Source of the DNA: Amphiscolops sp. MND2022
Lineage: Eukaryota
Direction of reading: 5' to 3'
Length of the DNA: 64,000 nucleotides
NCBI GenBank assembly: GCA_964187785.1
Contig: OZ076409.1
Coordinates: 53,446,001-53,510,000 of the forward strand
Positions 29,519-56,236 of this stretch are shown one piece after another. Under the pieces are notes generated by a model. The model was not told the origin of the DNA. It saw only the letters and a program-made list of their open reading frames with translations, and made no database searches. Both the position numbers and the translations under genes were made by a program. Positions within the stretch are counted from its first letter, which is position 1; the number at the start of each line of letters is the position of its first letter.

Positions 29519-30111
29519 GACTATAGTCGCTTTTTTCTAAAGAAAGGTGCCAACTAAAAATTTGGCATGTTAGGTACTGGTATCCGCATTGTTCAAAATC
29601 AAAACAATCAGGTACTTAGCGTGTTTGTAAATTAGGTGTTTTGTTTTAAAATGGGCTAAGATGAGTCAAAACTTCTTTGCACTTTCATAGTGCATTGGCT
29701 ACTTTTGAGCCTCAATTTCTTGTCGTTTGGGACGGAAATAATCTCGTTTGTCACAACACTCGCGTCTTGTATCTAAAAGTCATTACAAAAGCGAAAAGAT
29801 TAAAAACTGTCACCTAATGCTTGGTGTTGCATGGGACTAAGAGACCGTGACAGTCAGACTCTGGCTTTCAAAATTGAGGGACAACTATTTGCATGCAAGA
29901 AGGAATTTGCTGGGGATGAAATTTTCGTTCTCAAAAAAAAAACAAAAAGTGAAAAAAAAATCAGCACGAGTATAACGTATATAATGATCAAACTAATGAC
30001 TGCTAGTGAAAACTACAAAGCAGCATAAATACTGGAAAAGAATGTTTCGAATGCTTTTGTTAATTGTTCCTCCCCTTTCAACTATTTGAAACCTACGACT
30101 GGAACAGCGAA

Positions 30112-33100
30112 TGTAACGGCAAGCGCTAAGCGTTTGTGACCTGACAAAAGAGTGACGGAACTGGTATCATGGATATGGTCCAGGACAAACCACCATGACA
30201 TCAGCTCATTTCAGCCTCCTAAGGGTTGTCAGTCCCGAGGACAGGGAACCGTCTTGAAGGTTGCTCTCCTGTCTGTTCCAGTCTGTAACTACTGAGAATA
30301 ACGGGCATTATGCTTTTTCTCTTCACAACCACCGTTTAGACAGCCTTTGAAAACAATGATAAGGATAAACAGTGTAAATTTCCAATTCCAGTGTAAAATT
30401 CCAGGGTGACATACGATTGAGGTCTAAAATGGGAAATATTATCTAAACCGCCAAAACTAACGCTCGAGCTAGCTAAAACCAGTGAAAATACATGAAAACA
30501 GGCACGAAAATGGCAAACCACACAGCTACAAGTTGGGGCGCAGGGACTCCAAGCACCAAACAAGGATAATTAAGCGAAAAGACTCATTTTCCCGCTTCTT
30601 GCTACATTGTGTAGCATAATACTGAAAATCGGTAAAAACCGGGGTTAGCACCTCAAAAAAGTCTTTTTAATGATTTCTCTAGTTCTCTAAGCGCTCAAGC
30701 TTCTTCAAATTCCGTGTTCCTGCTCGGTCGTCTTCACGGGCGACTTGCCTTGTCTTCTGAACTGCTTTTTGACAGGTACTTTGGCCGAAACATGCTCAAT
30801 TTGCCATGTGCGATTCGAACTAATTTTCGGTCGAGTCTTTTTTTATCTCGTTGTACCAAAGGGTCCCGTTTTATCACTCCCCGGTCCTTAGGCATGACTT
30901 CCCTCTCATGCGGAGAAGCTGGAAACGAAAGAAACCAAAAATTGCCGTTACCAAACATTTTAATTCAACTTGAATAAAACTAGAAACAAAAATGTCGCAA
31001 CGTACGTTTACATTTTTTTTTAGAATTTAGAAGATTTTAGAAATAAAGCTGCAAAAACGACAACTCGAAAAAGAACGTTGCGAGGTGTCCAATACCAAAC
31101 GTAGCGATATCCTCTGGGCGTTGTCCAATAGAGTTGTGGAATGAAGGGGTGTTATTATCCTCCACTGGGGCTCTCGGGGCCTTACCTGACTCCCCGGGCC
31201 TTAGTTGTTGAGCATCCTCCTTGATATGATGATAGCAGGACAGAAGATAATGCCCAACACGCAAAATTCAGAAAGATATATTGGGTCTTGGACACGATCT
31301 GGGACAGTTATTCGGAGGCGGCCAGGCCTATGTCCTTTCGGTCGGTGTGAACATGGTAGTAGAAGGGTTTCCATGGCTGACAGTGGTGGACGACCGCGAC
31401 GACGTCCATCATAAAAGGAAAGCAGCGCTTTTTGCGATGAGTGTCACCAGAAGTGCGCGGTGGTCGACCAGGTCTATGTCCAGCTGGTCGAGTTTTAGCT
31501 GAACCACCAGGCAACCAAGTGATGAATATTGGTGGCTCTGCTAAAATAAAATCCTGCATACCATGTTTAGCAGAACGTGGCCCTATAGATTTTTTCAACA
31601 AATCCGGCAGCAACTTCGAAATTGATAATGGGGACTATGTTCTCGGGAAGTGAGTGTTGCAAACTGACTCCATTGGTGTTGCCCTGGAGCAACCCATAGT
31701 CAGCGGTTTGATAAAAGAGTGACGTATCAGCAGTAACCATGGTTAGAGTGTCCAAAATTGTTTCCTTTATAGGCGATGTCAGTGGTTCTACTTGGGCGTC
31801 GTTTGGAATATTGATAGTAGCACTTTCGAAGTGTACTGCTGCACTTATCGACTTCAATTGCGCTAGCGCTCAAGGTAGCAATTGCTCTCTGCGTAGATCG
31901 CTTTGTGTCAACAAGACTGATATCTCATCCATCTGCTGCTCTAGGGTCTCCAGCTTTTGATTCTGTGCCTGATAAGTCTGAATACTGGTTTCAAAGAGAG
32001 AAGACACTCTAGACAACGTTACTGAACTAGGACTGCAAGCCTTTTGATCCTCTCTGGCTCGATAACGGGCGAGTTACCTGGCATCGAGTCTAAAAAGTCA
32101 GATACAACATTGACACTGTTACCCAAAGGCCAGTCTTCCACATTCAGATCCTCTAATTTCGTTGACCAGTCATGTTCATCAACCATTTGGTTTTCAATTT
32201 CTGCTTTCAAAACTGGTTCAATAATTAATTGAGCTGCCTTGACACCCTCACCCCTTGAAAAAGGAGCTGAGGCGGTCTTAGAACTTCGTCAAATTCATTT
32301 CAGCTTCAGGTAGGTTCAAACTGCTTCACTAGAATTTTTTTGTACCCAAAATTAGTCTCACAGTCAAGATGAGTTCTAGTGGTCACAACGTGCTGAAAGT
32401 TGCTCCATTTATTCCACCCTATGCGTCGGGCTGTAAAATTGTGCGCTCGAGCACAATGCTACTGTAGTGTTGGACAATTCACACAAACAAACTGGTCAAA
32501 CTTTTGTCGTTAGGAGGTGACTCCTCTCAAAATTTCGTAACATTGGGTAAACCGGATCTCTCATGGTCGTTTCTGGATATTCAAAACCCTGTTTGGGCGC
32601 ACAACGTAACGCCTAGAGGTGTTCTTTTCAAAAAGAGTTCAATCCGAAGTGCGTCGGAGATTGAGACTTTATCAGAATCAAACTCCAAAGTACCAGTGGA
32701 GTTAAAAATTATGACAACAGACGGCAATTTTTGCGACCTGTAGGGTTTGCCTGGTTTGCACCCAGGAAGGCCTACCAGGTCCCTTCGGTTAAAAAATACG
32801 AGACTTTGGTCTCTGTCTTCCGTACAACGAAAGTTTTAAGGTTTTATGTTTTTGTTTTTCTGACGGTGTTTCAGGAGTTTGGCCCAAATGCGTGTCTGAG
32901 TACAGTCAAATTCAGTTCTATCTACCATACCGGGCAAAAAACTACGCAACACGTTTTGTCAGTCACTCAGTCTTCAATACAGGCCTCATGAAGCTGATAA
33001 ATAACTCCAGCTACAAGCTAGACGCCGTTTCACCGATTTTTTGAATCTTCAAACATTTTGGAAAAACACTCAAGTTGCACCTAAGAACACTGGAAACGTA

Positions 33101-36100
33101 AAATTGTGCTCACAACTAGCCACGCGATTCCACGTGTAGCCACATACACTGCAAAAGGCACCAGTTGGAGTTGAGACTATTGAATGAAATCCAGATACGG
33201 TACAAGAGTTCCGTATCACCGTGTCTCAACTGACACGATTTTTCACATGCAGTCAAAAACTCTCGTCCACAGAACTGAGCTCTCAAAGTCACTTTTCCAA
33301 CAACGGTGCACCACAAGACACTGAAAACAATAGTGCAAACCAATATAGTCCCAACTTTGCGCCAATAAGGTGCGCCGATAATTCCCAAAAATGGTCGATT
33401 CGTTACAATACACAGGATATCAAGACAGTAAGTAACAAAATGCTATTTGTCAGCAAAGCAGCACACTCGAGACTGGCCACAATTCGCACGTACAGCAACG
33501 AATTCACGAACAGCCGTTCACACGAGGGGTTTTCCACAAGTTTCAAACACGTAAAGCTGGGTTTTCCCGCTTTCCGAGTTTTCGTCTGGGTGAAAGCTGA
33601 AGTCAGAATCACGATATGCACGTCTCGAAAGGGTCGAAATTACTTCTAGCTCGTAGCGAGCTTTGATTTACTCAAGCAGTTGGTATTCCCACAAGCTCAG
33701 AAAATGAGTTTGGTTCAGAGCTACAAGTTCTATTAGACAAGCACGAGGCGTTCACAACAAATTATGAAAAAAAAACATTTTCTCGAAAAGTACAAAAAAA
33801 AACAAAAGTGGCTCGTAGTCATCACTGAAAAATCGGATCCGGCACAAAATTGGCCCAAGGATCTTGCTTTTACGTAGGTACACGGAACTGAGCACCTGTT
33901 GGGGCTCTGAATCCTGTACATTGTTTCACATTGATACAGACGTGTGGAACACCTATGTATCAGTAGGAGCCAAATTGCACACTCATCATACAAATTTCAA
34001 GCTCCGGTATGAGTTAGCGGTCTGATTGTTTCGCTAACAGTGCGCCAACTAGCACAAGATACGTCAGTTGGCTGCAATTTGTCCTCACTTATCGGCTAAG
34101 GTGTTAAGGCACTTCCAAATGTTTGCCATTTCGCACCTCTTTTTGTGCAGTACGTTTTTGACAATTTTTCGACAAACTTTGCATCGATCGGCACGAATCT
34201 TGGTAGGCCTTGCCAGTGAGCACTCACAATGCTGTTTCAACGGTCCTATGGAAGCCCCAGAGTTTTCCTAGGATTCCGACTGTAATTTGTTTACAGATAC
34301 GTATATTTACAGACACTATCTTGGCAAAAGCAGTCTTTTTTGACACTTTTTTCACAAATTGGCTGAAAGGGTCGACACTACAATTGTTACGGAGGGCAAA
34401 ATAGGCTCAACGTGTTGCATCACTGGTCACAGCTCACAGCACTGCCGCAAGCCCTCGATTAGCCGTGCCTGTTATGTATAAGGCACTGTCGGTCTTACAG
34501 TTTTAGTTTTTTTGGCTCTTTTAGCACTGGCTATTTTCTGATGTGAAAAGGTCAGAGAGCTTTTCTCAACTTTGGTTAGCGCTAGGCTCATCAAATTTTT
34601 GGCACTGATGTTTATTTTAATGATGAATACGAAAATGCAACCACTTTTTAGTTAGGGTTTGGGAATCAATGACCCAATCCTAACTATAAGACAGTCCGGT
34701 TTTGTGGAAATTTGATCAAATTCAGAGCAAATTTCCATATTTCTCAAATTTCTCAGCACTGATGGGATTTTTTACATGCAGTTTCTACATCAAGTTGTAA
34801 TGATGCACTCTGGCATTCCTGAATCTGGCTAAAAATCAAGGTTTTTCGACCTGTTATCCCTACGATACGTTACAAACGCTTCTAAATCCTATCTTTGGTA
34901 CTATGGAGTCTGTCCCAAACTAATAGCAGCATGGGAGAAGTAATTACATCACAATCCAGCACTCTCCTTGTACCTTTTCATGGTGGTTTTCTGCTAAATT
35001 CCAAAAAAATTGTGTTTTTTCATACCAAATCCGTCTCAAAAAGGACTTCGAAAAAGCCAAAAAGGACGTATTGCTAGCGAGAGAGAAACCGTTTGGACCA
35101 TAGGCAACGTCCGCTCATGTTCTACCTTTCAATCAAATCCCATCTGTTTATGACGTCTGTAGCAGAAATGGGGAAAAGAAAGTCGGGAACACTCGATTCA
35201 GCTCATCTATCGGTAGGATGGAGTATGGCGCAACCATCAACTGAATACCTCGTACATGGCCAAAAACGCTCAAAAAAGCTGCAAAACACCTGTTACGACA
35301 TGTGTAATGGCTTTCTAGTGATTCGCTAAGCCATTACAAAGGTACCCGATGATTGGAACGTGCAATTTTAGACCTCACCTGTCAACAAAGAACTTACTAC
35401 AGGTACTTGGAAAAATCCCCCGAAATACAGAAAAAATACCAGCAAACAGTATCATATCATCTAAGAAAAAGAAAAACTCTGGGTAAACATCTCCTGTCAG
35501 AGCCAAATCGTTTTTGGCGTCAAACACCAGAGGGCGGGAAACTTTAAAACGTTGAATTAGCTTCCCAAGACGATCCCTCTGTGGTCGCCAAAAAATGAGG
35601 TTCTATGTAACGGCAAGTGCTAAGCGTTTGTGACGTGACATTAGAGTTGAGGAACTGGTACCATGTATATGGTCCGGGACAAACCACCATGACATCAGCT
35701 CATTTTAGCCTCCTAAGGTTTGCCGGTCTCGAACCACTTTAAAGGATGCTCTTCGGTCAATCCAGTCTGTAACTGCTGAGAATAACGGGCATTATGCTTT
35801 TTCTCTTCACAACCACCGTTTACACAGCCTTTAGAAATAAAGATAAGGATAAACAATTTAAATTTCCAATTCCAGGGTGACATGGGAATAAGGTCTAAAA
35901 AGGGGAATAGTATCTAAACTGCCAAAACTAGCGCTCGAGGTAGCTAAAACCAGCGAAAATACATGAAAACAGGCACGAATATCGCAAACCACACAGCTAC
36001 AAGCTGGGGGGGCAGGGACTCCAAGCACCAAACAAGGATAATTAAGCGAAAAGACTCATTTTCCCGCTTCTTGCTACATTGGGTAGCATAATTCTGAAAA

Positions 36101-36346
36101 TCGGTAAAAACCGGGATTAGCACCTCAAAAAGAGTCCTTTTTATGACTTGTCAGTTCTCTAAGCGCTCAGACTTCTTCACACTCCGTGTTCCCGCTCGGT
36201 CGTCTTCGCGGGCGTCTTGACTCGTCTTCTGAACTGCTTTTTGACAAGTACTTTGGTCAAATCATGCTCAATTTGCCACGTCAGATTTGAACGAATTTTT
36301 GGTCGATTTTTTTTGAAATCTCGTTGTACCACAGGGTCCCGTTACA
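30112..36346 (-). mobile_element. Non-autonomous LTR element of the 3-bp-TSD (Troyka-like) group
   Basis: Diverged LTRs 30112-30873 and 35606-36346 (TGTAACG..CGTTACA); TSD GAA (30109-30111, 36347-36349); PBS TGGCGACCACAGAGGGATC (tRNA-Arg-like) 15 nt from the LTR; no RT or integrase recognised; decayed unknown ORF at ~31040-32250. Confidence 0.88.
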
Positions 36347-36910
36347 GAAGTTCTACGTTTGCCCTAAGTTGCTTTTAAAACGGTATACAGAGAGGAAGTT
36401 TAGGAAATATAACTACATGCGTTTTGCAATTAATGCATACCACTAATCATGATAGCAAAACCAGTTTCCATTTAAAAGTTACGTATCCGGGAATAAAAAA
36501 TTGAGAGCCAGGTTGTTTTTAAAACGCCTAGAGACTATGCTTTCCTTTCTACCGAGAAGATTTAGAACTGGTAACGAGGTTAAAGGTTACCATTCTTATA
36601 CCTTCTAAACCTGAGCATCAAGATTTAACGGAGGTACCAGATACTATAATTTTCGGTTGCTCTTTTAATCTCTTATTCATGTATTCATGGTCATTGTGTG
36701 TGTTTTGCCAGCGCTTTCTGAACGATATATATTCTACGTGCAATGTTTACAGCTCTCAAATCGAGCCAGCACTGAAAAATATAAGAACGCACGCGCAGTA
36801 AAATCGGACCGCGTACCAAGAAAATGGTGATATATATTTTTGAACAAAAAAAACATATTTTGATTTGTAGTTTCGTCGAAAATTGTTATTTTTGTATTTG
36901 AATGTTGACA

Positions 36911-39899
36911 ATGTGTACTTCCACAACTGAGACAGGAATGCCGATTGGACTCTACGCCAAGTATTACTCAGAAGTACCTCAAATTACGAGGAAGAAGGCT
37001 GTTCCAGGCCGAAGAGAGTAAGTACCCGGGTTCGATTCCCACTAAGGAATCGTTGTTCTTTTAGTTACTGGCTATTGATGCGCGTTGATAATCAGTAGCT
37101 TTTAAAATTTAGCAATTTTATGCATTTTTCTGAAATCAGAGAAATTTTACAATATTTATGTTTGAAACAGTTCATTTTGAAAACTGATTGATGGATATAA
37201 ACTAAAAATCCTTGACCAAAAAAGCGATTGTCTCTTTCTCTATTGTTTCGCATTGGCTAGTACTTACTCACATCAAGAACACATCTTTTTGTGAGTCGAG
37301 TAGTTCTATTGAAGGTGGGAGGTAAATCTCAGTCTTGTATTGACAAGTGTTCGTCTTTGTTTAATGAAAGTTGCACCGCAAGAATCCCCAACACAAAGAG
37401 AACGAAATGTTGTCAAGTGTCTAAAACCGAATTGTACTTTTAGCGCACCTTTCATTATCTTTTGATCTTTGAACTCATAACATGTTTTATAACTAGATGT
37501 ACTTTACATGTAGTTCAAGTTCTTTTGTTACTCCTGAAAATGCTTGTTTCATTTTTATGACCACTTCTTGAGAAGTAATACATCAGTTTGAAGGTAAAAC
37601 TTCTCATCAATCTTGCTTCTTTGATAACCTCAATGTTTTGTGCGGAAGCTTTCCGAGTAGAAAATGGTAATTTACAGTCATTGCAATTACTTCCTTTGAT
37701 TCGTATTTTATAAAATCACAAAAAAAATTGAGGGGGGGGGTCAAAAATGAGCTTAATGTTGAATCACTTCATAACGAAGCCATCAAGCTTCATGTAATTC
37801 ACGTTTCCAAATAGCCTAAAATTTGTACCATCTTTGGCAAAATTAAAAAGATTCAAGTTAAGTTCAAACATGTTTTTAAGTTTTGACATAATTCAACAGT
37901 TTCAATGTTTTTGTCAGTATGTAAATATCATCATATTATTGTGAACTTGAAGATTTAATCAGAGCGTTAAATATGTTTAAACAATGTTACAAAACATTTT
38001 ATTCAAACATCCGGCATTGGAAGCTACACCAAACTCATCGTGAGCGTTGAACTTCAGGGTTGACAGCTACCGAGTGTTGATGGAACCCGACATCACTAAA
38101 ACCCCGGCCGCCCACAGGAAGGAAAAGTTTCCCCACAATTACGACACAAAACCAAATAAATCGGAACTTCCCTTCATCGAACCCACCCAGCCTTACCCCG
38201 GCCTCACTTTTGACAACTTCTTGAACAACCCACAGCCTCGAAAAGTTGATTTTCTTCGACAAAATTATCGTTTTCTGAACGAACCTGTTGCAAAAGTTAC
38301 GTGTGAGAAGTATAAAAATGAGGAGTCACAATGGTGGAAGTGGGATAGGGTTCAGAGTCACCCTGGTAAAGGGGCGTATACTTTGGATTCAACCTTCCGC
38401 GACACGTATAAGCCGGTGGATAGGATATCTGCGCCCGCGGGGAGACATACTAGTAACCCTGGCGTTGATGCAGCTGTTGGAATTGGTAAGTGCATGTAAA
38501 CTTTTTCTCAAGTCATTTTAAAGAACCCCTAGTTGCAACAAAGTTAGCAGATTGTTCGCCCGAGATACTGGATTTCAGAGCATTATTCTATCAAGATCGT
38601 GGTAATTTCTGCTTGATCTTGAAAGATGTCAAGTTTTGTCTGATCTTATAGAAATCTTGCTAATTTTCAACTGGTCTTGCAAGATAACGGTATTTACAGC
38701 TCTGAATTTGAGCAAGAAAAAGTCTGCATTTGAGCGTTGATGACAAATATCATCTGATTGGCTAGAGCCGAGAGTGGAATCCCCGACAAGCGAGTTTTTC
38801 ATTTCAATATTGCTTTGCATTGAGTAAAGAAACTTTTTTCTGCATCTTACTTTTCAAGTTTCATATTTGGAACAACATCCGATTTTCGTGATTCACGATC
38901 ATAAACAGGCTAATGGGGATGAAAACTGGCTTATAGAAAACTAAAAATTAGTTCCTACTTTGCTTCGTGTTAAAAATCTAGAATGTTTTCAGTTCCTGTG
39001 ACGGATTTGAGACCGAAGGGGCCTATTTTGTTGAAAGAAAAACAGTCTTTTCAACACATTTATGACTCACGAATACCCAAAAATTACCCGGACATCGGCA
39101 AGGTGGGTTCACATTATAGTGCATTTCTTCAGCCACTTTTACTTGTAGGGTTATTAAAGTCACTGGTATTTTTAATTCTAATGGTTTAACTTGATTTTGT
39201 TATAAACAAAATAACCCGTTAATAATTATTCTGTCAAACTCCTAAAACTATAATTTTTGTCCCGATTAAAAAACTTTCGCATTAGCCTCAAAAATTGAAC
39301 TAGGTAATAATTTTGGGCGAAAGACCAATTCACAAATCAGAGTGTTTCGTACTTTTCGTTGATATAGGACATTACAGTTAAATGATTTACCATAGTCCAC
39401 CTCTGCAGAGACCACTATGTCCTCATCATGAGTATTTCCTAATTTAATAACTCAATAACTCAACTCACGTTATTTTCTTTACAACCGTGTTAAAATAATT
39501 ACCTAGCCAATGTTGCTATTGGAAACAAAAAACAGTACTTTAACACATATGGGTTACCATATGGACACAGTTTTGCTTTTAGCGTCGTATAATGTAATTT
39601 CAACTTGGTAGCAAAGTTTTAGCATATATTGAAGACTGCTCGTTTTGTTTCAAACCGCCAAAATGCAAACTAAAAGTTTTTACTCTAATAATTGAACTTT
39701 ATAGTATACTGGATTTAGATTCCAACTTTCAATTATCAGTTTTTCCATGGTCTTCAAATGAATTCCCTTTTTTCAGAGACAAGGTGCCTTTGTGTGGCAG
39801 TGCACGGCTCCTCTTCCATCACCATATAAGGAAGAATATATGAAGATGGTGCCTTCAGCTGGGTTACCTGGGGCAAAGCCAGACCAAACCACTGATTGA
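36911..39899 (+). CDS. C2orf73/CIMIP6-like ciliary microtubule inner protein, ~255 aa, 4 exons
   Basis: Exons 36911-37017, 38058-38485, 38993-39102, 39777-39899; all GT-AG, phases agree, total 768 nt. Motifs NYRFLNEPV, QWW, DSTFRDTY, GIVP, KQSFQHIYDSR, GKRQGAFVW recall the C2orf73 family (from memory, not searched). Confidence 0.78.
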
Positions 39900-41093
39900 G
39901 ACCAGATCGATATCAATTGGAGCATGATTCAAAATATTGAAAGATGTCAATTGAAAGATTTTAGTATTGATTAATGTAATTAATAACGTGCTAGGAAAAA
40001 AAGAATTGAAGTTATGACCGAATCACTCTGCTTTGAGGAATAATTATCTTCGCTAAACTCACACCAAATTGCTAATCTTGGTATTAAGTAGCAGGAGCTT
40101 TTCCTTCTGTCCTCTCATTTCACTCAAAACTATTTTTTTAGTCCAAATCAGTAGGTCGGTATTTCTGTCGCATTGCATTCCTAGATATTTTTGGGCTATT
40201 ATTAGTGAAATAAGACTTCAGTGCGGACCAAATCCGCTTTTCTCCAATTTCCGAATCATTAAAAGCCTTTTATTTAGCAAAGCTACCTCAGCTCACTCAG
40301 AAGTATTTTACACATTTCTCTGGTATATGATAAGTTTACATTCCTCAGCCTATTCCTCAGAAATAAAAATTTCAAAATTTTGATTAGATTTTGAATGTTG
40401 GTCGTTTCGCAAATCAAACTGAGTTCCTACTAGCGCATAGCTGCTCACGGTTCATCTGAAGTTACATTACGGAGAAAGTTTAAAACTCGACATTTCTTGA
40501 AGATTTTGGCACATCTAAAATATGGGTTCAACGTTTATCGAGAGGTTTACAGCAATTGGTGGGTGCATGCAACGTTCAAATCACATTAAACAGCGCCCAC
40601 AGAATAAGAACCACGCCAAATCAGTTGCTTGCCATAGTCGAAATAGCTCCAGCCCTCAGGGTTCGAACCTCCTATCTGCGGGGCGGATACGCTACAAACT
40701 GTGCCAGTGTGACTAAAATATCCTCATACTAAATGAACTAATAATGAAGTGGAGATTTGGCAGACGTTGAGAAAACACGCTACACAGATGGTGGTTTTCC
40801 TCCCTGTAGACTAAACATTGAAACATTGTGGGGGCGGAAAATGATAAAGCTCTCAAGAAGCTCAAGAAAAAAAGTAACTCGCAAAACAAACCTAATTACT
40901 TTTACAATTACTTTGCTACCACTCCCAACGCCTAATAAATTGGATGTTTTTGGAGAAAGCAATGTGGCAGTGCCAACTATTCTTTTCAGACTACATCAAC
41001 ATTGACTGGGACTGTGCGGAATTCCAAAATTATTGAACTAGTTTTCTGAAGCGATTGTATTTTCCGCATTTATATGATGATTGCATAATGGTA

Positions 41094-44000: not shown

Positions 44001-45907
44001 CGTACTACAATCGTAATGCAAGAAAGCCTTTCAAACTCAGTGTCCTTCCTCTTACTCACCCCCAAGGCATATTCCGAGTCTCTGGTCACTTTTACGTTCT
44101 TACTTGTGCTCTCCAGAGACAGGGCAGCATGTGTGACAAACGGACTTTTCAGACAATCTAGCATCTGTAGCTAAGCAGGCTTCTCAAAAAATCAGTGTTC
44201 GTTGCTCGATTCATGCGTGAGGTGTACCTCGGTTCGCGGTACCACAGTTGTGTAAACCATGTCGATTTGAAAACACGGAACAAGAAATTGGCCGGGGAGT
44301 ACCCGTACTCTCCCGAGAGAAATCAACACCAATCATGATGAAACACCTAGAGCTTCGAAGCTCTTAGAACTGCTTCGGCAGCGGAAGTGCTTCTAAAACT
44401 CGAGTGAGTGCTCTGGAACTTGTTTTTTTATGATTATGTCAAAGACTGTTTTATGATATAAAATGCCTGATTTTAAACTTTTATTGGTTCTGCTCTATCA
44501 TCGCTATTGACATTGTCATCCTCTTGAGAAGCAGTTTATTTCCATCTCTTGCGAATACACTGGTGATTGTACTACCTAGACGATACTTTCATCAGAACGT
44601 ACACTGTTGACACAATAGACTGAATGGGTCCTCACGTTTTTTGGTGATATTTTAAATTTTGAGCTCTGTTTCCCCATTGGTGATATTTTTGTGCAGTTTC
44701 TGTTGGCCATGAACCACGACCCTTTTGCAAGACCACAGCTGTTACTTTTTTCGCTTTCCAAGTTGTATCGTGCATTTTGTAAAACCTAACCTATCAGGTG
44801 GGCACCCGGCCAATGCCAAATCTGTTCTGATGAGTGCTTTTTATAGTTATCCAGATTCGGTAACACAAAGTGATAGTAATTTTGGTGCGAAATTAAACGT
44901 TTGAAAGCGTTTTGAGAACAATGCTAAGTGTCTATGTCTAAAGTTGCTAATATTATTCCAGTGCTAGGACTCAGTGGGTGTGGAATCCAAGGAAGCCTGC
45001 TAGGCTTGCAAAAACTCATGTTTTCGGGCAGTAACATGTTTTTGGGCAATGACTTCCATTTAGATTCCTGACGTACCATGTTCCAGCAGTATCACCGGAT
45101 CACTGGATGGTGGCAGCCAAGATGTGAACGTCTTCTCTCGTTTGTCAAGGACGACAAACTACGGCCCGGGCAAGATGTAACGTCAGGCAAGGGGCGTTGC
45201 AGAAGTTTTTGAAAATTTCGATCAGAAATTCGAAATGTGCGGTATCAAACAAGCACATTCAAGATGGCCGACCCGGCAAGTACGAAAACCGCAGAGGAAG
45301 CAAAAAAAGGCAAATGCAGACCCACCCCGACCCAAGAACGTGAATGTCCTAGATGTCATCACGCAGAAGGCGAGAGAATTAGGAATTGTGCCATCTGACA
45401 GCAAAAAGACAGGGTTTCGGCAGAAAAATGCCAAATGAGACCATTGTGCCCCGAAGATGAGGAATGATGCCAGAGGCCAGACTGACGACCAACCCTGAAC
45501 TGTAATGTTATTGGGGCTTATCCCCGTGTTTTGTCACCGTTTACAGAGTATTTGGATGATGTTTGATCTACTAGATCTTCATTTTATTCCTTATTCCCAA
45601 AAAATAATGTATTTCAGTTAAATACCTTTTTGGACCTCGGAGGTATGTAGGAGTCGCGGGAACACGCTAGAAACTTTAGGATTCGTTTTTACAGGCTTGT
45701 CGGGCGTGTCCGGATTTTGAGAGTGCCGGTGCGTTGCCTCGGAGCTCTAACTAGAGGAGCCTCCTCTGACGAAAGAAAAGGCTCCCTAGGAGACCATTTT
45801 GGGAACAAAAACTAGTGTTTAGGGATGTAGTAAGACAACGGTCTCCTGTTCAAGCACCCCAGGCATTTTCCCTCTTCCTAGATGTGCGCCGCTAGCCGGA
45901 CGTTCCA
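41094..45907 (+). mobile_element. Non-coding (LARD-like) LTR element of the 3-bp-TSD group
   Basis: 732-bp LTRs 41094-41825 and 45176-45907 (about 3-4% different by eye); TSD GTA (41091-41093, 45908-45910); PBS TGGCGACCACAGAGGGATC at 41842; interior colinear with 59562-~62200; no retroelement ORF. Confidence 0.93.
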
Positions 45908-46068
45908 GTAACTGGAATTGGCGGAAAAATAGTGAATATGCGCGAAGGCAACAGAAATCTTCGTTGCTTTTTGAAGTTTATTCCAAGTTATTGCAAGTAA
46001 CAACAAATGCCACTGAGACAAAAACGATACCAAAACAAACAAACGTTCCAAAAATTGCGGTCTCGAGT

Positions 46069-46532
46069 CAAGGCTGGCAGTTATTCACGTGTAATTTGCG
46101 TGTAATCGTTTGATTGGTTAATTCCGTGACGCGCTGCATGTGATTGATCAACTTGTTCGATGAAGCGCGTGTGATTGGTCAATTTGTTCACTCAAAAATC
46201 AAGAAGTTTCGAAACAAATTTGAATGCGAATGAAATTGAAATAAAGAACTTTGAAAATGAGTTTTGGCGAATGTTGAGCGAGTAATTTCGCACTTCAACA
46301 ATGTTCTGTCAGACGACAGGCGATCTTCTGATGAAGAAAATTAAGAACAAACGTTGTTTTCATACTCTAACGTCGAAAAATTATAAGTTTGTGTTTTGTT
46401 TTCTCCGTGAAATAGTGAAATAGCCGTGTAATCAAGTTAATTCCGTGAAAATGAGCGTGTAAATGCTTTAAAAATTCCGTGAAATAGCGCGTGTAATTTT
46501 AGATATTTTTCCGTGAAATACTGTCAGCCTTG
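46069..46532. mobile_element. hAT-family MITE
   Basis: TIR CAAGGCTG(G/A)CAGT; 8-bp TSD TCTCGAGT (46061-46068, 46533-46540); subterminal CCGTGAAA repeats. Confidence 0.92.
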
Positions 46533-48148
46533 TCTCGAGTACGTGTATCATTCTTTTATGTGTTAGTTGGAAGACAACACGAAAAGTTGACAATCAAGAC
46601 TTCAAAGCTTTTCTGGTAGCCTAAACAGCTGCTACAATTTAAAAACGCTGCTTAGGCTGCAGTTCGCGACTCTTGGATTGATTTTTGTCACTTTTGATAG
46701 GTTTTCTTTCGAAGTTTTCAGCAAGATCGGACAAGGTCCTTACAAATTTTCATCAAGGTTTTCACACAGAAGCGAGTTAGATTCTTGCCAAGGTTTCAAC
46801 GGATTTTCACACTGGGTCAATTTCATTATGCGTATTATGACTGGTTCAAATAGAGGCGGAACAACTCAACGCGAACATTGCGGAAGCACATGTGAATGTA
46901 CAAAAGGGTCGCTTTTGAGTGGGGTGTTTTTGTAGTGGGCGCCTTTTGTCCAAGTTGCTTTTGTCTGTATACGCTTCACTGAAACCAGTGATACACAGTC
47001 TGATTTGGTAACATCACGCTCACTGAGCGCTGCAAAGGTTTCAAAATTGAACTATTTTACATGGTTTGCGAAAACATGGTTTGCGGGCTTAAGTATACCA
47101 CCAAAACTACTGATTTTCCACGGTAAGTTCGAAAACTTTCACACTTCCTACCTGTTTCAGGGCAATTTTATGCACTTTTTTCCAACAAACCTTCTAAATT
47201 GTTCAATGTATGATACTTAACAAGCCGAGAAATGCGCGTTAAAAGGGGGACCTGTAACGGCTGCTTGCCCTTATCCTGCGCTGAGGCTTGACAAGCTTTA
47301 CGCCGCCCTGATCCGTTGCTTAGTGCTGTGGACCGTCACTAAACAATTCCTGGTTTTCTTGTTTAAAGGACTGTATCTTTTGACTGGTGGGTCCGATGTG
47401 ACCCGCGGAATCTCCTGCAATTCCGCTTTGCACTGAATTGGATCCGATGTGATCCTGCACACACTTCCCTCACTGTATCTTCACGCGCTCCGGCTCTCCA
47501 ACTATGAGAGTAGCTACTTAGTCGCTCTGACTCTAGCGAAAAGTTGTGAAGGTTGAGAAGTAGATTAATTAGTCTCGCGGTCCTGAGACCCAACTTGACT
47601 ATAGCTATTCAGTGGAGAAAATCTCTATCTAATAATGGTATACATATGGTTTACAATTCTACAGTAAATATAAGCAAATATCAGTTGAAATATGTTGTAT
47701 AAATAAATGACATTTAAAGCTTAAAATGAAGTTATTGACTAAGTAAACAAAGAATGTGGTGGTTTTGGCATGTTGGTTAGGTGGGTTAGGAAGTATGTTT
47801 ACACAATGTAAATATCATTAATTTCAACAGAGATGATTTTCCTTCAAGGCCATATGAGAAAATCACATAATAATTAATATATCAAAATTGGGATTTCAGG
47901 GGGTCCGACCTAGGTCACTTTGGGTGTTAATTGCTCGGAACCCAGGGGAGATACGGGGTAGGTTGTTAAGAGTGAAAAGTTAGTGTATCACCACCACTAT
48001 ATGCGTGCCAAGTTTCAAGGTGATTGAATCAGTGGTTTTCCGGGACGGGGGGTGGTGTTTTTTTACATAGGGTCATTTTTGCTTAGACTTGTATTTTTCC
48101 ATCTAAAATCTTGATAAGCTTTCTAAGTGTTTTGAGTTGTAAGTTTCA

Positions 48149-51100
48149 TCAGTCACGTTCGAATTTGAGTTTCTGATCTCGCAATTGACTGGCGCCAACA
48201 TTGCCGGCCCTGTTTTTCTCCTGAAAAACACTTTCGTAGAACATGGGTGCCAGTTTCACTGCTGGTCGTTTCAATTTTCCATCTTCAGTTTTCACCAGCG
48301 CTGATCTCACTCGCCCATCGCTTCCATGGTAGACTTCCAACACTCTACTCATCTTGTAGAGTGCTCTTTTTACATTCTCATCCACTATCCAAACCAAATC
48401 ATTGACTTCTAGTTGTCTAACTTCTTCGTTTTTCCATTTTCCAAAGAATTCAAGTTGCATCATCATTTCTTCCCGTGATACAGCCGGCCCTATGAAAGGC
48501 CCACTTTCCGAACTTGTTGTTGTTTGTGCTTTTGAAGAACCCAATCGCGTTTCCATTAGCGATATTTCATCTGCAAATTCATCTATCACAATCTTTGCAT
48601 ATAGGATGCCAGTTGTATTCAACTGAGCGCTTTCGTTCCTTCCATGTAATCGAATTGAGATAGGTTCAAACTTCCAAGCTCGTTTCTCGAATTGCTTGCT
48701 CTGGCCAGTGCTCAGTTGAGTGTGCACATTAGGGTTAGCTTGTGCCACTGCATCCATTCCTGAGTTTCCATTACCTAACCAGTTGTTACAATTTTCACTG
48801 TCGCTTGGAATAATTTTGTCCAGCAGATTTTCTTTCAGCTCAACATCATGTTTTCTCCAAAATGACATCTTTACGGCTTTTGTTCCATCACTTGCGTTGT
48901 CTTTAGACGGTTGGTTGTGTTCCAACAAATCACTGGAGTGTCTTTGATAAATCGGTTTTCCTCTTGAATCATCATGAAGTTCAATTTGACACTCCTTCAC
49001 GAATCCAACAACTTTTTCCAATTGAGAACACTTTCTTCCCTCTTCCAGTGTTAAGGTGTTGACAGCAAGCTTCACGGCTTGCATTTGAGTTGGTTGCTTT
49101 TCTTTCACATGCTGTCGTACAGAGGCTACATTCATATTCTCTTTCAGCAAATCAAGCTTCACAATAAATTCTTCCAAGGTTCGGATGTTTGATTTAATTG
49201 CAAAACTTTCATGTCCATTATTTTCTTCTGTAAATGAGAAACCCATATTTTTGTCTTGTTTGACTACCACATGGTCACCCACAGCTAGGTGCATATCGTC
49301 TTGCCAAATTTGCTTGATTTCCAAGTGGAGGGATTTAGTACTGACGTCCTGCCAGTTTCTTTCTACAACGAATATGTTTGGTGAGTTCTCAGAATATTCC
49401 TTGGACATTTCGGATACGCTGCAGTGGGAAGTATACGATTCCATGCCCCACCGAGTTTTCATCTGATCCATCAATGGATCCACATCTGCAAAAACCAAAC
49501 TTTCATTGTCGAGCTTCGCAGTTTCTTGGTGAGGCAAGGGTCCACTAAGCATCCACCCCAATTTTGTCAGTACGGCCCAAGGTTTTGACTTTCCACATTT
49601 TCTATACCCAATGGCTCTATGCAAGTGGTAACAATCTTGTCCCAAGATGACTTTTACATCTTTCAGGTTGATGGTAGAATCTTTCAGCACTGACAGGTGT
49701 GGATATTCTTCCTTCAATTTCTTGAGGTTGTACGTTCGATTTCCTGCATTTACGTCGGGATGACTATAGGCCATGATATCTTCTTTGACTTTTCCTTGTT
49801 GATCGCCAATCCTTACCCTTAGTCGTTTGCTACTAATATCTGACGCACCATGAATCCCTGCAACATTCAAATCCACTGGCTGTCCCATCAGATTTAGCGC
49901 TTTCATCAGGCTCTCGTCCACAAAGGACAGGCTTGCTCCAGGGTCGCACAAAGCGAACGTTTTCACAGTTTTGCTCCCACTCCCTATCGATACTGGAATG
50001 ACTGGAAGCACTCCACTGCTTCTCATTGAGGACAGGTTAGAGACCTCATCAATATTTTCAACATTTTGCTTCTGGTCCTCGTTCTTGTAAGGTCGGTGTA
50101 GCAATCGGTGATGAGGTTTTCCGCAACCATTGACGTCGCAGAGTCTACCAGAGCAATTTCTCATCTGATGTGCGTCTGACAAGCATTTGAAGCACAGCTT
50201 CAGTTCTTTCGCCTTTTGTCCTCTTTCTTCGACGTTCATCTTCTTGAATTTCTCACATTTCCATATCGGATGTTTGCCATCTTTCAACGCACACTCTCGC
50301 TGGTATTTTGAGTTGTCACTGGCTGTGTCTGGTGCTGATGTTGCAAACGTAGAACCTTCGGCCTTTTCCTTGTAGCTCGTCTTTGCGCGATCAGCATTTA
50401 GATTCGAATACAATAGCAATTCATCTTGAACATCTGCTATATCATTGAGCCACTCACTGAGCACAGCGAGTCCCGGTTGATACAGGTTCATTTGCTTCAC
50501 ATAAGTGAGCCACTTCGTTTTCATGTCCAGTGTTAACTTCCTTGTGGCACTGCCCAGAACTCCTTCTGAGTTTAGGTCTCCCACGTAGTTGAATTGTGTC
50601 AAAACATTCACGCAACTCGACACTATTCTCGCAAACTTGATCAATGCGGCTCCATCATAAGGTTTCATCGGTGGAAAGGAGTAAATTCTCTTTAGTTGAG
50701 CATTCACAACCATTTGAGGTTTTCCAAAGTTTCGAACTAGAACGTTCCACGCCACATTGTACATCTCCGCGGTGTACCCAAGGCCAGCAATCGCCTCTTT
50801 GGCTTTGCCCGTGACCATTGTTTTCAGGTGATTCATCTTTACACTGTCGTCCATGTTTGCTGCGTGGACGGTTGCTTGAAACAGTTGTGACCACTCTGGC
50901 CACTCCAATGGGTCACCTGAAAACTCTGCCAGTTTCAATTTTGGCAAGCTGGATCTGATGAAATAGTCATCTCTCGCATTTGACACTATGTTATGCCCTT
51001 GACGAGGCAGATACGGCTTCTGCGTGTTCTCAAGCTGTGGCACTTGAAATGCACCACTCGGGATGCCTCCTGACGTAGGCGGTAACCCATTCTGGTCTGC

Positions 51101-52489
51101 CATAAGGGTCATAGACGGCTTCGTCGAGGCGAACTTCACTTCTGGTTGTGCTGTTACTCTTTGACTGTCATCACGTATGACAGTCTTTGTTCCGTCCTTT
51201 CCAATATCTCGCACAGCGGCTTCTGTGGACATGACCGGTTTCAATGAGGACTTCAAGTCCCTCACTTGCGCGGAGCGTTGTCCTCCTTGCATCGATTGTC
51301 CTGTAGTCACTGGTGCTGAGACGGACGTTTGCTGGTATACAGATGGCACGTTAATCGGCGATGCCACGTTTTCAGCTTCTTCGGTCTTGTCCATCCAATC
51401 TGAGACTTTCGTCAGATTGTCGTCTGGAGTCTCGACTGGTGAGATGCTTCTCAAGCTAGAACCACGACTGCTCGACACTTTCGCTCTTTCTATTTCCTTT
51501 TCAGCTATTCTAGCTTTGCGAGCCAACTCTTCTTGCAGGTCAGCTATCTCCTTTTGTTTCAGTTCCGTCAGGCGAGCTTGCAGTTTTTCTTGCTCTTTCA
51601 AAGCTTTTATCTCTAGATCAAGAACTCGTCTTGCACTTGATGTTTTTGAAATCACAGACGTTTTGTTGCTTTTGGCTCTTTCACTTCGCGAATGTATGCT
51701 CAATTCTTCTATTGGCAATGATCTAGCTCCATTTCTTGGCTCTTGGCTGTCTTCCGCGTTGTGACTATCACGTTCCTTTTGCTCATCGTCTGGTTGCAGC
51801 TCCTTTTGTGGTGATGTGCCATTTTTACTTGATTTGTCTGCGGCTACGCTTGCGCGAACGTCTGCTAGTCTTTGTTCGGCGTCTTCAAGACTTCGCAAAA
51901 TGGCTCCAGTTTCTCCTGACTTCAGGAGAGCTTCAATTTTCAGTTTGAGGTCAGACCTCTCTTGAAGCAATTCCTGACATGCTACTGCATAATCTTCTTC
52001 GGCGTCCTCGCCGTTTTCAATTCGTTCGTCGCGCAACTTTTCGTTGTGGGCAATTCTTTCATCAATAGCACGTTTCTTCTCTTCAAGATCCAAATAGTTT
52101 AGTATATGATTTTCATCTTGCAATGCTGACATCAGTATTATCACCCTTACAGTGTTAGAGTCTTGTCGCTGCAACTCCACAAATCGGCTCTTCATCGCTT
52201 GGATCACTGTTGAGAACATTTCGGGTATCTGGGGTTGGTACTTGATTTTGATTGCATTTTGGATTGCCTTAAAGAGTCGTTCTCGCCTTTTTATGACAAC
52301 TATTCGTCGTAACAGTAGCTCTGCTATCTGTTTGTTGTCATCATTCCTAGCTAGGTTTTCATCAATTGCTCTGATCGTCTTGCCGTGCTCGCAAGCTGCA
52401 TTCCAATGACTCACAATTTGGGCCGCGTCTGCAGAGTTCTTCAGAAAGTTTTCAACTTTGTTGATATCAAACCGTTTTGGTTGAGCCAT
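48149..52489 (-). CDS. Intact 1446-aa BEL/Pao Gag-protease ORF fused to the BEL integrase C-terminal (DUF5641-like) domain
   Basis: LPKLKLAEFSGDPLEWPEW (DUF1759-like), triple Cys/His knuckles, ALCDPGAS protease, TKLGWMLSGP, C-terminal KW..LEVNDLVWIVD..GSDGRVRSALVKT..KRPAVKLAP; ORF ends inside the 3' LTR. Confidence 0.92.
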   Translation of the reverse strand: MAQPKRFDINKVENFLKNSADAAQIVSHWNAACEHGKTIRAIDENLARNDDNKQIAELLLRRIVVIKRRERLFKAIQNAIKIKYQPQIPEMFSTVIQAMKSRFVELQRQDSNTVRVIILMSALQDENHILNYLDLEEKKRAIDERIAHNEKLRDERIENGEDAEEDYAVACQELLQERSDLKLKIEALLKSGETGAILRSLEDAEQRLADVRASVAADKSSKNGTSPQKELQPDDEQKERDSHNAEDSQEPRNGARSLPIEELSIHSRSERAKSNKTSVISKTSSARRVLDLEIKALKEQEKLQARLTELKQKEIADLQEELARKARIAEKEIERAKVSSSRGSSLRSISPVETPDDNLTKVSDWMDKTEEAENVASPINVPSVYQQTSVSAPVTTGQSMQGGQRSAQVRDLKSSLKPVMSTEAAVRDIGKDGTKTVIRDDSQRVTAQPEVKFASTKPSMTLMADQNGLPPTSGGIPSGAFQVPQLENTQKPYLPRQGHNIVSNARDDYFIRSSLPKLKLAEFSGDPLEWPEWSQLFQATVHAANMDDSVKMNHLKTMVTGKAKEAIAGLGYTAEMYNVAWNVLVRNFGKPQMVVNAQLKRIYSFPPMKPYDGAALIKFARIVSSCVNVLTQFNYVGDLNSEGVLGSATRKLTLDMKTKWLTYVKQMNLYQPGLAVLSEWLNDIADVQDELLLYSNLNADRAKTSYKEKAEGSTFATSAPDTASDNSKYQRECALKDGKHPIWKCEKFKKMNVEERGQKAKELKLCFKCLSDAHQMRNCSGRLCDVNGCGKPHHRLLHRPYKNEDQKQNVENIDEVSNLSSMRSSGVLPVIPVSIGSGSKTVKTFALCDPGASLSFVDESLMKALNLMGQPVDLNVAGIHGASDISSKRLRVRIGDQQGKVKEDIMAYSHPDVNAGNRTYNLKKLKEEYPHLSVLKDSTINLKDVKVILGQDCYHLHRAIGYRKCGKSKPWAVLTKLGWMLSGPLPHQETAKLDNESLVFADVDPLMDQMKTRWGMESYTSHCSVSEMSKEYSENSPNIFVVERNWQDVSTKSLHLEIKQIWQDDMHLAVGDHVVVKQDKNMGFSFTEENNGHESFAIKSNIRTLEEFIVKLDLLKENMNVASVRQHVKEKQPTQMQAVKLAVNTLTLEEGRKCSQLEKVVGFVKECQIELHDDSRGKPIYQRHSSDLLEHNQPSKDNASDGTKAVKMSFWRKHDVELKENLLDKIIPSDSENCNNWLGNGNSGMDAVAQANPNVHTQLSTGQSKQFEKRAWKFEPISIRLHGRNESAQLNTTGILYAKIVIDEFADEISLMETRLGSSKAQTTTSSESGPFIGPAVSREEMMMQLEFFGKWKNEEVRQLEVNDLVWIVDENVKRALYKMSRVLEVYHGSDGRVRSALVKTEDGKLKRPAVKLAPMFYESVFQEKNRAGNVGASQLRDQKLKFERD

Positions 52490-52524
52490 TTCTTCTCTTC
52501 TTGATTGAACTCAGTTCCCAAAGT

Positions 52525-52740
52525 CACAATAGCCCAAACTCCCAGAGACACAATAGCCCAATCTCCCAGAGACACAGTAGCCGAATCTCCCAGAGACACA
52601 ATAGCCCAATCTCCCAGAGACACAGTAGCCCAATCTCCCAGAGACACAATAGCCCAATCTCCCAGAGACACAGTAGCCCAATCTCCCAGAGACACAATAG
52701 CCCAATCTCCCAGAGACACAGTAGCCCAATCTCCCAGAGA
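52525..52740. repeat. 24-bp tandem array x9 in the BEL 5' UTR
   Basis: CACA(A/G)TAGCCCAATCTCCCAGAGA x9; A/G alternates from unit 2 onward. Confidence 0.97.
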
Positions 52741-53843
52741 CACAAAATCAGCAACTCCAAGTTCCAGACACTTGTTCTTCTTGGGCAATCTTCTCAGTTG
52801 TCCACCAACGAGTCGTCTTCTTCTAGTCCGGGTCGTCCACCAACGAGTTGTCCGGGTCGGCGGACCAACGAGCGTCCGGGTCGGCGGACCAAATGTAACG
52901 GCTGCTTGCCCTTATCCTGCGCTGAGGCTTGACAAGCTTTACGCCGCCCTGATCCGTTGCTTAGTGCTGTGGACCGTCACTAAACAATTCCTGGTTTTCT
53001 TGTTTAAAGGACTGTATCTTTTGACTGGTGGGTCCGATGTGACCCGCGGAATCTCCTGCAATTCCGCTTTGCACTGAATTGGATCCGATGTGATCCTGCA
53101 CACACTTCCCTCACTGTATCTTCACGCGCTCCGGCTCTCCAACTATGAGAGTAGCTACTTAGTCGCTCTGACTCTAGCGAAAAGTTGTGAAGATTGAGAA
53201 GTAGATTAATTAGTCTCGCGGTCCTGAGACCCAACTTGACTATAGCTATTCAGTGGAGAAAATCTCTATCTAATAATGGTATACATATGGTTTACAATTC
53301 TACAGTAAATATAAGCAAATATCAGTTGAAATATGTTGTATAAATAAATGACATTTAAAGCTTAAAATGAAGTTATTGACTAAGTAAACAAAGAATGTGG
53401 TGGTTTTGGCATGTTGGTTAGGTGGGTTAGGAGGTATGTTTACACAATGTAAAAATCATTAATTTCAACAGAGATGAATTTCCTTCAAGGTCATATGAGA
53501 AAATCACATAATAATTAATATATCAAAATTGGGATTTCAGGGGGTTCGACCTAGGTCACTTTGGGTGTTAATTGCTCGGAACCCAGGGGAGATACGGGGT
53601 AGGTTGTTAAGAGTGAAAAGTTAGTGTATCACCACCACTATATGTGTGCCAAGTTTCAAGGTGATTGAATCAGTGGTTTTCCGGGACGGGGGGGTGGTGT
53701 TTTTTTACATAGGGTCATTTTTTGCTTAGACTTGTATTTTTCCATCTAAAATCTTGATAAATTTTCTAAGTGTTTTGAGTTGTAAGTTTCATCAGTCACG
53801 TTCGAATTTGAGTTTCTGATCTCGCAATTGACTGGCGCCAACA

Positions 53844-54709
53844 GGACCCTTTCTGATTTTTTGACATCCATTGTTGCAAAACATCACAAAATAGAAGGGG
53901 GACCCTTTGGGGAAACAAAATTTTCAACAAAAAGTCTCAATGCCAAAAAAAACTAAAAGGGGGCCCTTTGGGAGTTTGAAATATCCATTCTGTCGCCAAA
54001 CATCAAAAAAGTGATGTAACGACAAGCTCTCACCATTGTCGCCGTAACCATAAGAGTTAGAGGAACACATGATATGGGTATTTGCCCGGGACAGGCGCCC
54101 ATGACCATGAGCTCATTTTGCCTTTCGGGTAAAACCTGTCCCGTCAGAGGATGATTCCGCTTCTTGTGAAGTGCTGGCCGGCCTGATCTTTAATTGTTAT
54201 CAGTAGCGCGAATTACGCTTTTTCTTCGAAACCATCACTTAGAAAGCCTTTAAAAACGTTCGCTCTTGTTGTCGAAGTACCTGCCAATTTTGTTGAAACA
54301 GCGAAAAGAGCAATCACATGCTGTGTGCCACGTCAAACATCGAATTAGAATTTTTCAGAAATTTTCTGAACATGTTCAAATCCAAAATTCCAATATCGAC
54401 TAATTTTGCTGTCTCAGAGGGTGCCGTTACATGAAGGGGGACCCTTTGAGGAAAATTGTTTTCAAAAAAAGTCTCACAATGCCAAAAAACTGAAATGGGG
54501 GACCCTTTAGTCTCGCCCGGTACTGTATGTTACGCGGAAAAAGAGAAAAAAAAAACATTTTCGGTTCAGTTCGCTAGCCCAAATGGTTCAATTTGGCACC
54601 ATAAAACTTCGTAGAACTTTGTAGAACTATTTTGGTCAGTTAGTGTGGATTGGAAAAAAAAGAGTCACTATAATAGTCGCGTTTCACTTCTTGAAGCGCC
54701 GACTGAAAA
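53844..54709 (-). mobile_element. HINE/DINE-1-like element (starts at ~47220) hosting the BEL element and a solo LTR
   Basis: Tandem GGGGGACCCTTT motifs; end gtcgcgtttca..tgaagcgccgactgaaaa. Confidence 0.6.
54015..54431 (-). mobile_element. Solo LTR of the 3-bp-TSD group
   Basis: TGTAACG..CGTTACA; blocks homologous to the LTRs of 30112-36346; TSD TGA (54012-54014, 54432-54434); removing it restores host motif aaaaaagtgaagggggaccc. Confidence 0.88.
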
Positions 54710-55092: not shown

Positions 55093-56236
55093 TTATCTTC
55101 CATCATAGTAATAAGGCATTAAAGATGTTAGAGCACCAAGGTTGATAATTAAAAACAGAAAAGCGAACAATCGATCTACACATCGAAGAATAAAGAACCA
55201 AACTTCTCGATTAACTTCTGCCATGGTGTCACTGGATAATGTACGAAACAAAATGGCTTCCAGAAGGACCAAACTTTCAGCTAATTCTCCAATCTTTCGC
55301 TCCAAGATTTTGTCTCCCTCATCTTGCGTAGTAGCTTCACAAGTAGTTTCGGTCAAATTGTTTATGGTACTTTTTGGTCTATTTTCAAACATTTCGGTTA
55401 TTACGTGATCCAGTTTTGGGCACTCCAAAAACAAGAATGGAGAAATTGTTTCACAGAACTTGAACACGCATTTTTGGAAGGTTTCATTGAAAAGATAAAA
55501 TAATGAAGAGTTTCCTAGACTCAGAGTTGTCACGGAGATACAAAGGGATAGACAAACGGCGAAGATGGAGAAGAGACAGTACTTGCTGATTACCGGTAGT
55601 TGCATAGAGTTGACGGGTACAAATTGGCTGATGCAGAGAATATTGAAAGCTTGGGCCACGAAAACTGTCACTGATAGTCCTACTTTTTCTTGACATCCGT
55701 GTGGAAGAAAGAAGACCAGGATTGACAGAATTCTGATAACAAGATACTGAATTTCAGTTTTTAGAAAACTGGGATTCAACAAGCATGGAAAAATAATCGC
55801 AATGCACCAAAACAGTTTCAGCAGATCTTTTTTGATTTTTCAGCTCATGCATTTATAGTCAAGGGAATTAAAAATCACCCTGAAATTTCAATAGGAGGTA
55901 CTTCAAAATCAAGCGTTATGAGTACTTGGGCTAAAAACGTTTCGAGAGAAAAACATTTTCTGCAAACCCTTATCATCTATGCAAATTATAAACAACCCGT
56001 CAACAATTAGGAAGTATTGGAGAATTTAAATATTCAGTATGTATGTGTAAGCACTTACGATATGAGAACAGTAGGAAGAATGATGACTCGTGTGTAGAAA
56101 CCTGATCTCCGCACCAGCGTGAGTGTGTATCTCACTTCAGAAAATACTAGAGTCGTATCTTGGCGTCTAGTCGTGTTCAACACTCGGTTTTCGCAATCCA
56201 CTGTTCTAAGTATCCATTCCGAGTTGGGCGTGAATT
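55093..56236 (-). CDS. Nicotinic acetylcholine receptor-like (cation-type Cys-loop) subunit, non-alpha; last two exons
   Basis: Exons 56236-56059 (FTPNSEW..FSEVRYTLTLVRRSGFYTRVIILPTVLIS) and 55732-55093 (LVFFLP..EKVGLSVTV, VP.NS..LPVISKY, W..ILRCVDRLF); phase-2 GT-AG intron; upstream exons not found in the window. Confidence 0.9.

Follow-up and report, generated by a model that had tools for sequence, protein, structure and literature searches.

A retrotransposon lineage with long terminal repeats (LTRs) in the genome of Amphiscolops sp. MND2022, members of which lie in a stretch of 64,000 nucleotides of contig OZ076409.1 (positions 53,446,001 to 53,510,000, hereafter the window), is flanked by target-site duplications (TSDs) of 3 bp. 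In this Ty3/Gypsy lineage the exception to the rule of 4-6 bp is real and well sampled, and it is paired with an unusually distant primer binding site (PBS). On sequence evidence, we consider it likely that the duplications arise from an integrase that joins at target bonds three bases apart, a stagger probably derived from one of 4 bp, and independent of Troyka, the one LTR retrotransposon group known to have TSDs of the same length.

Three insertions in the window have TG..CA ends and exact 3-bp TSDs, as a preliminary description of this DNA had reported. Element C (30112-36346, minus strand), which is non-autonomous and lacks pol, is bounded by GAA (TTC in element sense) at 30109-30111 and 36347-36349. 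Its 3' LTR (30112-30873) adjoins a polypurine tract (30874-30886), and its 5' LTR (35606-36346, 741 bp; LTRs 86% identical) is followed by a 15-nt spacer (35591-35605) and a PBS (35573-35590) that is complementary at 18/18 positions to host tRNA-Arg(UCG) plus CCA. The non-autonomous element B (family B, 41094-45907, plus strand) lies between two copies of GTA (41091-41093 and 45908-45910) and has LTRs at 41094-41825 and 45176-45907 (96% identical), a 16-nt spacer (41826-41841), a tRNA-Arg(UCG) PBS (41842-41859), and a degenerate polypurine tract (45163-45175). The third insertion is a solo LTR of family D (54015-54431, minus strand) between copies of TGA (54012-54014 and 54432-54434) within a dispersed host repeat; it is 417 bp in length versus about 773 bp, owing to an internal deletion. 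The positions of the PBS and the polypurine tract place element C and the solo LTR on the minus strand, correcting the earlier account. The autonomous element A (14,776 bp, plus strand) begins at 58824 and runs past the window edge at 64000. It is preceded by AAA (58821-58823), and its predicted end, CA followed by AAA, was indeed found beyond the window at G000:C1:53519599 (window-equivalent 73599). Its 5' LTR (58824-59545) is 100% identical to its partner and is followed by a 16-nt spacer (59546-59561), a PBS (59562-59579) complementary at 18/18 positions to host tRNA-Lys(UUU) plus CCA, and, from 62597 onward, the start of a single polyprotein of 2998 aa. Three other LTR elements of the window, all on the minus strand, have TSDs of 5 bp, again as first described, and served as controls: an unrelated Gypsy element (4879-10873, CTAAC), a second Gypsy-type element (18108-24079, GCGAC), and a BEL-type element (47253-53843, GGACC), the term Mag-like being a label of the preliminary description only.

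Tabulation of genomic copies gave the same picture, with most showing a TSD of 3 bp rather than a TSD of 4-6 bp or no TSD. In the pooled data of seven related families, both host flanks could be read at 117 insertions, of which 98 had an exact 3-bp TSD, 12 had one mismatch, and seven had two or more, one of the latter being a true 4-bp TSD. Exact 3-bp TSDs were found in all families (A, 14/17; B, 15/18; C, 16/21; D, 17/20; E, 13/15; F, 20/22; G, 3/4), while shuffled flank pairings yielded a mean of 4.15 and a maximum of 13 in 5000 shuffles. Two of the 117 fitted 4 bp exactly, one in poly-A and one real (L247), and no true TSD of 5-6 bp was present among them, one GA microsatellite also fitting 5 and 7. 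LTR searches for five families supplied the copies, with the best 30 loci taken per family, and further full-length copies were taken by position. Before rows were removed, the raw counts of exact 3-bp TSDs were 61/78, 7/10, 19/20, and 9/15. Left out of the pooled count were partnerless LTRs, four loci wrongly scored as solo LTRs (L009, L098, L108, L127), a truncated copy, a tandem copy, and four rows of family D whose supposed partner end lay in the interior of an element; the solo LTR of the window and two further copies were added. In addition, LTRs flanked on both sides by element interior (L243, L244, and L262, at C1:34.07-34.10 Mb, and L079) represent tandem elements that share an LTR.

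Empty sites and the composition of the targets bear on the register of the cut. Of 71 insertions tested, nine could be compared with a paralogous site that lacks the insertion within the set of fetched loci, and the best-matching empty site lost three bases, leaving a single triplet, in seven cases and lost four in two (L247, and L128, which lies in poly-A). The true 4-bp TSD of L247 (GTCT) belongs to a young family E solo LTR within a family C LTR, and 35 of 37 empty copies agree. For the solo LTR of the window, the preliminary description had reported an empty site with a single TGA. A single triplet was favored in two of four spanning hits, including the closest, the other two being uninformative, but these hits belong to a diverged repeat family (~72-83% identity) and none is an allele. 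Numbered from the middle base, the 98 exact sites had A at position -4 in 54 and T at +4 in 57, the center base was A or T in 86, and positions -2 and +2 were uniform in base composition. The best symmetry axis was the middle base (0.311 versus at most 0.115), and half-integer axes scored below zero. This palindromic pattern fits a symmetric 3-bp stagger, against a hidden stagger of 4 or 5 bp. Together, the 5-bp controls, the empty sites, and the pooled count support a stagger that is set by the element and not by the host.

The families belong to one lineage in which autonomous elements, non-autonomous elements, and solo LTRs all occur, as had been claimed and as is supported by our searches. 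Families A, E, F, and G (14.8-19.6 kb) are autonomous, and B, C, and D are without pol. All seven end in TGTAACG..CGTTACA and have LTRs of about 710-780 bp. Reverse transcriptase (RT) identity is 92% between A and F and 73-75% between A and both E and G, and the LTR and leader are common to B and F/A, to C and G/E, and to D and E. Element C retains a broken N-terminal remnant of an E-family polyprotein (31318-32261, minus strand; four tblastn pieces, 47-59% identical to the family D open reading frame, ORF). For families C and D, a reading with an accessory antisense ORF was rejected, since both are on the minus strand and the supposed ORF is part of the E polyprotein.

Between direct LTRs, Pfam domains are arranged in the order protease (PR), RT, ribonuclease H (RH), and integrase (IN), with no Pfam match in the spacer between PR and RT; in the 2998-aa polyprotein of element A they follow Gag. 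The best match of the polyprotein in the PDB was Ty3 Gag-Pol (E = 2e-108), and the integrase aligned with that of Ty3 through the GPY/F region (E = 1.6e-30), with a GPY/F-type motif, WRGPH, in the A, E, F, and G proteins aligning to the Ty3 GPF motif. The RT motif is YIDD in this lineage versus YVDD in most of the clade of relatives described below, and a zinc knuckle, CX2CX4HX4C, is present in F, G, and the clade member L153, and is degenerate in A. Across the clade, a macrodomain-like module closes the polyprotein (L131:8570-9091; P0135, P0306, P0293, P0274, P0035). The evidence is a Pfam Macro match in P0135, a relative (E = 1.4e-4), and a profile built from six relatives that matched the module of family A (E = 1.2e-15, search size 1000), for which there was no direct Pfam or PDB match and Atlas gave a lead only (0.83). 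Members of 19 kb have a second ORF of ~1400 aa after pol that appears SGNH-like by eye (L151:5671-9879, P0373; L140-145, L148-149, L351-353), without a convincing Pfam match; element A of the window does not have it. In L153, a clade member on a metagenome contig, a third ORF (L153:14852-20275, 1808 aa) has SGNH-like and DEDD-exonuclease-like stretches by eye, also without convincing Pfam support. BLASTP showed no similarity between the extra ORF of family F and that of L153, and kinship of the two was rejected. Another clade member, P0055, had a match to Lipase_GDSL_2 that fell below the cutoff (E = 8.8e-7), and P0373 had no such match.

The second unusual trait is the position of the PBS, which over 18 nt matches the host tRNA-Arg(UCG) or, in family A, tRNA-Lys(UUU). 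It lies 15 nt from the LTR in 14, 16 nt in 41, and 17 nt in one of 56 cases, versus 0-3 nt in 18/18 relatives. The sequence of this spacer varies between families and its length is kept; a spacer of 16 nt was maintained even through the switch of primer between family A and the others (window 59562-59579 versus 41842-41859). Longer gaps between LTR and PBS, of up to about 10 nt, may occur in Athila and Tf1. Under the standard model of reverse transcription, the sequence between LTR and PBS gets copied, so that the cDNA would carry a tail of 15-16 bp beyond the right-hand CA, which either would be cut by the integrase or would be trimmed before joining. Genome-wide, the host tRNA-Arg(UCG) end has 254 matches, with ARAGORN confirmation at three loci; for the tRNA-Lys(UUU) end there are 612. 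Long tandem arrays matching these ends are located at G000:C9:57.54-57.58 Mb and C7:5.22-5.26 Mb, the latter being the putative tRNA-Lys(UUU) array.

We then placed the lineage in a phylogenetic reconstruction of RT-RH (40 sequences, 409 columns, LG+G4, rooted on the other Gypsy element of the window), alongside larger FastTree runs. The lineage and eleven unnamed relatives formed one clade with 100/100 support and a stem of 0.49 substitutions per site, and this clade was nested in a group (95.7/96) that held five elements with 4-bp TSDs and one with a 5-bp TSD. With its tree neighbors judged to be Gypsy by sequence and structure, the lineage is, by its protein sequences, a distinct clade of Ty3/Gypsy (Metaviridae). 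Matches to this genome reach only 55%, 38%, and 39% for three clade members, which therefore probably come from other hosts. Relatives were collected from public contigs (161 loci), and the 18 with both ends readable by eye comprised 12 with exact 4-bp TSDs, one with a 4-bp TSD and a mismatch, two with 5-bp TSDs, and three with none; none of the 18 had a 3-bp TSD. The viral contigs searched yielded one weak locus. Several GTDB 'bacterial' metagenome-assembled genome contigs (among L265-L338) contained complete eukaryotic Gypsy elements, presumably through contamination, and served here as outgroups. The lineage resembles its unnamed 4-bp relatives (L169-L315) and Ty3 (PDB 7q5b, 4ol8) in domain order, TG..CA ends, tRNA priming, the polypurine tract, and an HHCC-DDE-SH3 integrase with a GPY/F region. 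It differs in TSD length (3 bp versus 4-5 bp), in the distance of the PBS from the LTR (15-17 versus 0-3 nt), in a shorter integrase C-terminal hairpin, in the C-terminal macrodomain-like module, and in its long branch. The TSD of 4-6 bp that is typical of Gypsy elements, without defining the family, is thus not the rule here.

Other explanations of these observations were considered. An ordinary integrase stagger of 4 or 5 bp, with bases removed by end processing or host repair such that the 3-bp TSD is only apparent, would be compatible with the unusual U5 end, the spacer of which requires unusual end processing, and with the single true 4-bp event at L247. However, a 4-bp stagger would put the center of the palindrome between bases, where the symmetry axes score below zero, and a stagger of 5 bp into which the terminal T and A are borrowed would need A and T at -2 and +2, both of which are uniform. 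These shifted registers were rejected on flank composition and the symmetry axis, the TG and CA are intact at both LTR ends, and other elements in the same host give 5 bp; we consider this explanation highly improbable. Affiliation with Troyka, as proposed in the preliminary description, has in its favor the same TSD length with rare 4-bp exceptions, and the lineage is further like Troyka in being made up of animal LTR retrotransposons with a single Gag-Pol ORF (PR-RT-RH-IN) and non-autonomous members. Troyka elements, according to the papers from which we took their features, have CG..CG ends (CGCCA..TGGCG), LTRs of 100-400 bp, an internal part of 1.5-7.7 kb, a zinc finger of the form CX2CX8-10HX4C, and no GPF/Y motif in the integrase (PMC12440569), and the Kuafuorterviruses, which correspond to the Troyka group, have IADD, VADD, or LADD in RT (PMC11673190). 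In contrast, the present lineage has TG..CA ends, LTRs of 710-780 bp, elements of 14.8-19.6 kb, CX2CX4HX4C, a GPY/F-type motif, and YIDD, and the Troyka-type zinc finger had no match in 5/5 elements scanned. Membership was therefore rejected on all six features, leaving TSD length as the published hallmark in common. We regard as highly improbable both a divergent Troyka lineage in which TG..CA ends were regained and the capture of a Troyka integrase by a Gypsy element, given an integrase that aligns along its length with those of Ty3 and the 4-bp relatives and an RT-RH nested among 4-bp Gypsy elements. Because the lineage fails the hallmarks of Troyka, the 3-bp stagger probably arose a second time.

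It is also conceivable, and in our view unlikely, that the mechanism is as we propose and a description of the lineage with its 3-bp TSD already exists, whether under a Repbase entry, for instance, or among the kin of Juno and Vesta of bdelloid rotifers. The latter are described as deep-branching Gypsy-type elements with TG..CA LTRs, a GPY/F motif that is present or reduced, a dUTPase between PR and RT, and GDSL or DEDDy third ORFs (PMC5408684), and the long members found here carry an extra ORF that appears SGNH-like. The rotifer LTRs are shorter, at 159-551 bp, a search of that paper for the word 'macro' found nothing, and it gives neither TSD nor PBS for the rotifer elements. Moreover, TSDs of 4-6 bp are stated for all LTR retrotransposons other than Troyka (Kojima 2025, PMC12440569), and in a survey of plant LTR elements, the finder of which looked for TSDs, 4, 5, or 6 bp are given in the part of the text available (PMC6317226). 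The accessible sections of PMC12859917 and PMC10886601 contain nothing on 3-bp TSDs, and no 3-bp Gypsy lineage was found in the literature, searched outside Repbase and most subscription papers. Generic metagenome labels aside, no organism is attached to the proteins of the clade.

Several points weigh against an integrase with a 3-bp stagger of independent origin. Some of the seven insertions with two or more TSD mismatches have LTRs that are 100% identical, and the sample leans young because only top-scoring matches were taken. The TSDs of the lineage were measured in one genome, the clade members from other hosts (L153, L263, L264) being without an LTR pair, a clear PBS, or readable ends. 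The tree was built from RT-RH and holds neither Troyka sequences nor named Gypsy references, and the nearest sister of the clade is weakly resolved (81.5/92 and 36/62). Finally, enrichment of pyrimidine-purine (YR) steps at the center of the 98 sites was looked for and none was seen (20 and 24 of 98). Retroviruses with short TSDs favor flexible YR steps at the target center, according to PMC4422553, and a simple 'sharper bend' model taken from them does not fit here.

With these points in mind, the 3-bp integrase stagger that we favor could operate as follows. The autonomous families would mobilize B, C, and D, the integrase would join both ends of the element to bonds in the target that lie three bases from each other, and the resulting 3-nt gaps would be filled by host repair. 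In an alignment of integrases read by eye (23 clade rows and 18 outgroup rows), the C-terminal hairpin of the clade was ~3-6 residues shorter than that of the outgroups, and a Gly-Pro after the first catalytic Asp, present in most outgroups, was missing; seen only in the families of this genome were two inserted residues and an Ala in place of Gly following the second Asp. These clade-specific differences are candidates only for the change in stagger, and it is speculative that the shorter hairpin, for example, may set it. In Ty3, the C-terminal SH3 domain of the integrase touches the minor groove of the target (PMC8632968). The IS3 family of bacteria (PMC10045372) offers a more distant parallel, in which TSD length is 3, 4, or 5 bp by subgroup. 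Its integrase-like DDE enzymes belong to DNA transposons, which have no RT, no LTRs, and no HHCC domain, and subgroups with 3-bp TSDs show that an integrase-like fold can adopt such a stagger.

Apart from the LTR elements, the window contains host coding pieces of a CMIP6-like ciliary protein and two pieces of ligand-gated ion channels (38044-38496, 2880-3377, and 55093-55836). The BEL element contains a tandem array of 24-bp units (52468-52803), and another array, of 29-bp units (24525-24959), also matches itself in reverse complement.

We tentatively suggest that this Gypsy clade, present in several hosts, may possess an altered intasome that moved from a 4-bp ancestor to a 3-bp stagger and that would cut a U5 tail of 15-16 bp instead of about two bases; if so, 3-bp TSDs would have a second known origin in LTR elements, and this origin would be the first for which close 4-bp relatives are at hand for comparison. 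The 2025 review of Troyka uses 3-bp TSDs together with CG ends as a classifier (PMC12440569), and since the lineage described here has the former without the features of Troyka, a 3-bp TSD alone is not diagnostic of that group. LTR finders that require TSDs of 4-6 bp or a PBS adjacent to the LTR would probably miss such families or misplace their boundaries. The determinants of integrase stagger are still argued from few retroviral structures (PMC4422553). Troyka is too distant for comparison at the level of residues, whereas RT identity is about 40% between this clade and its 4-bp relatives, and the family is young and abundant in the genome, with many intact, nearly identical copies.

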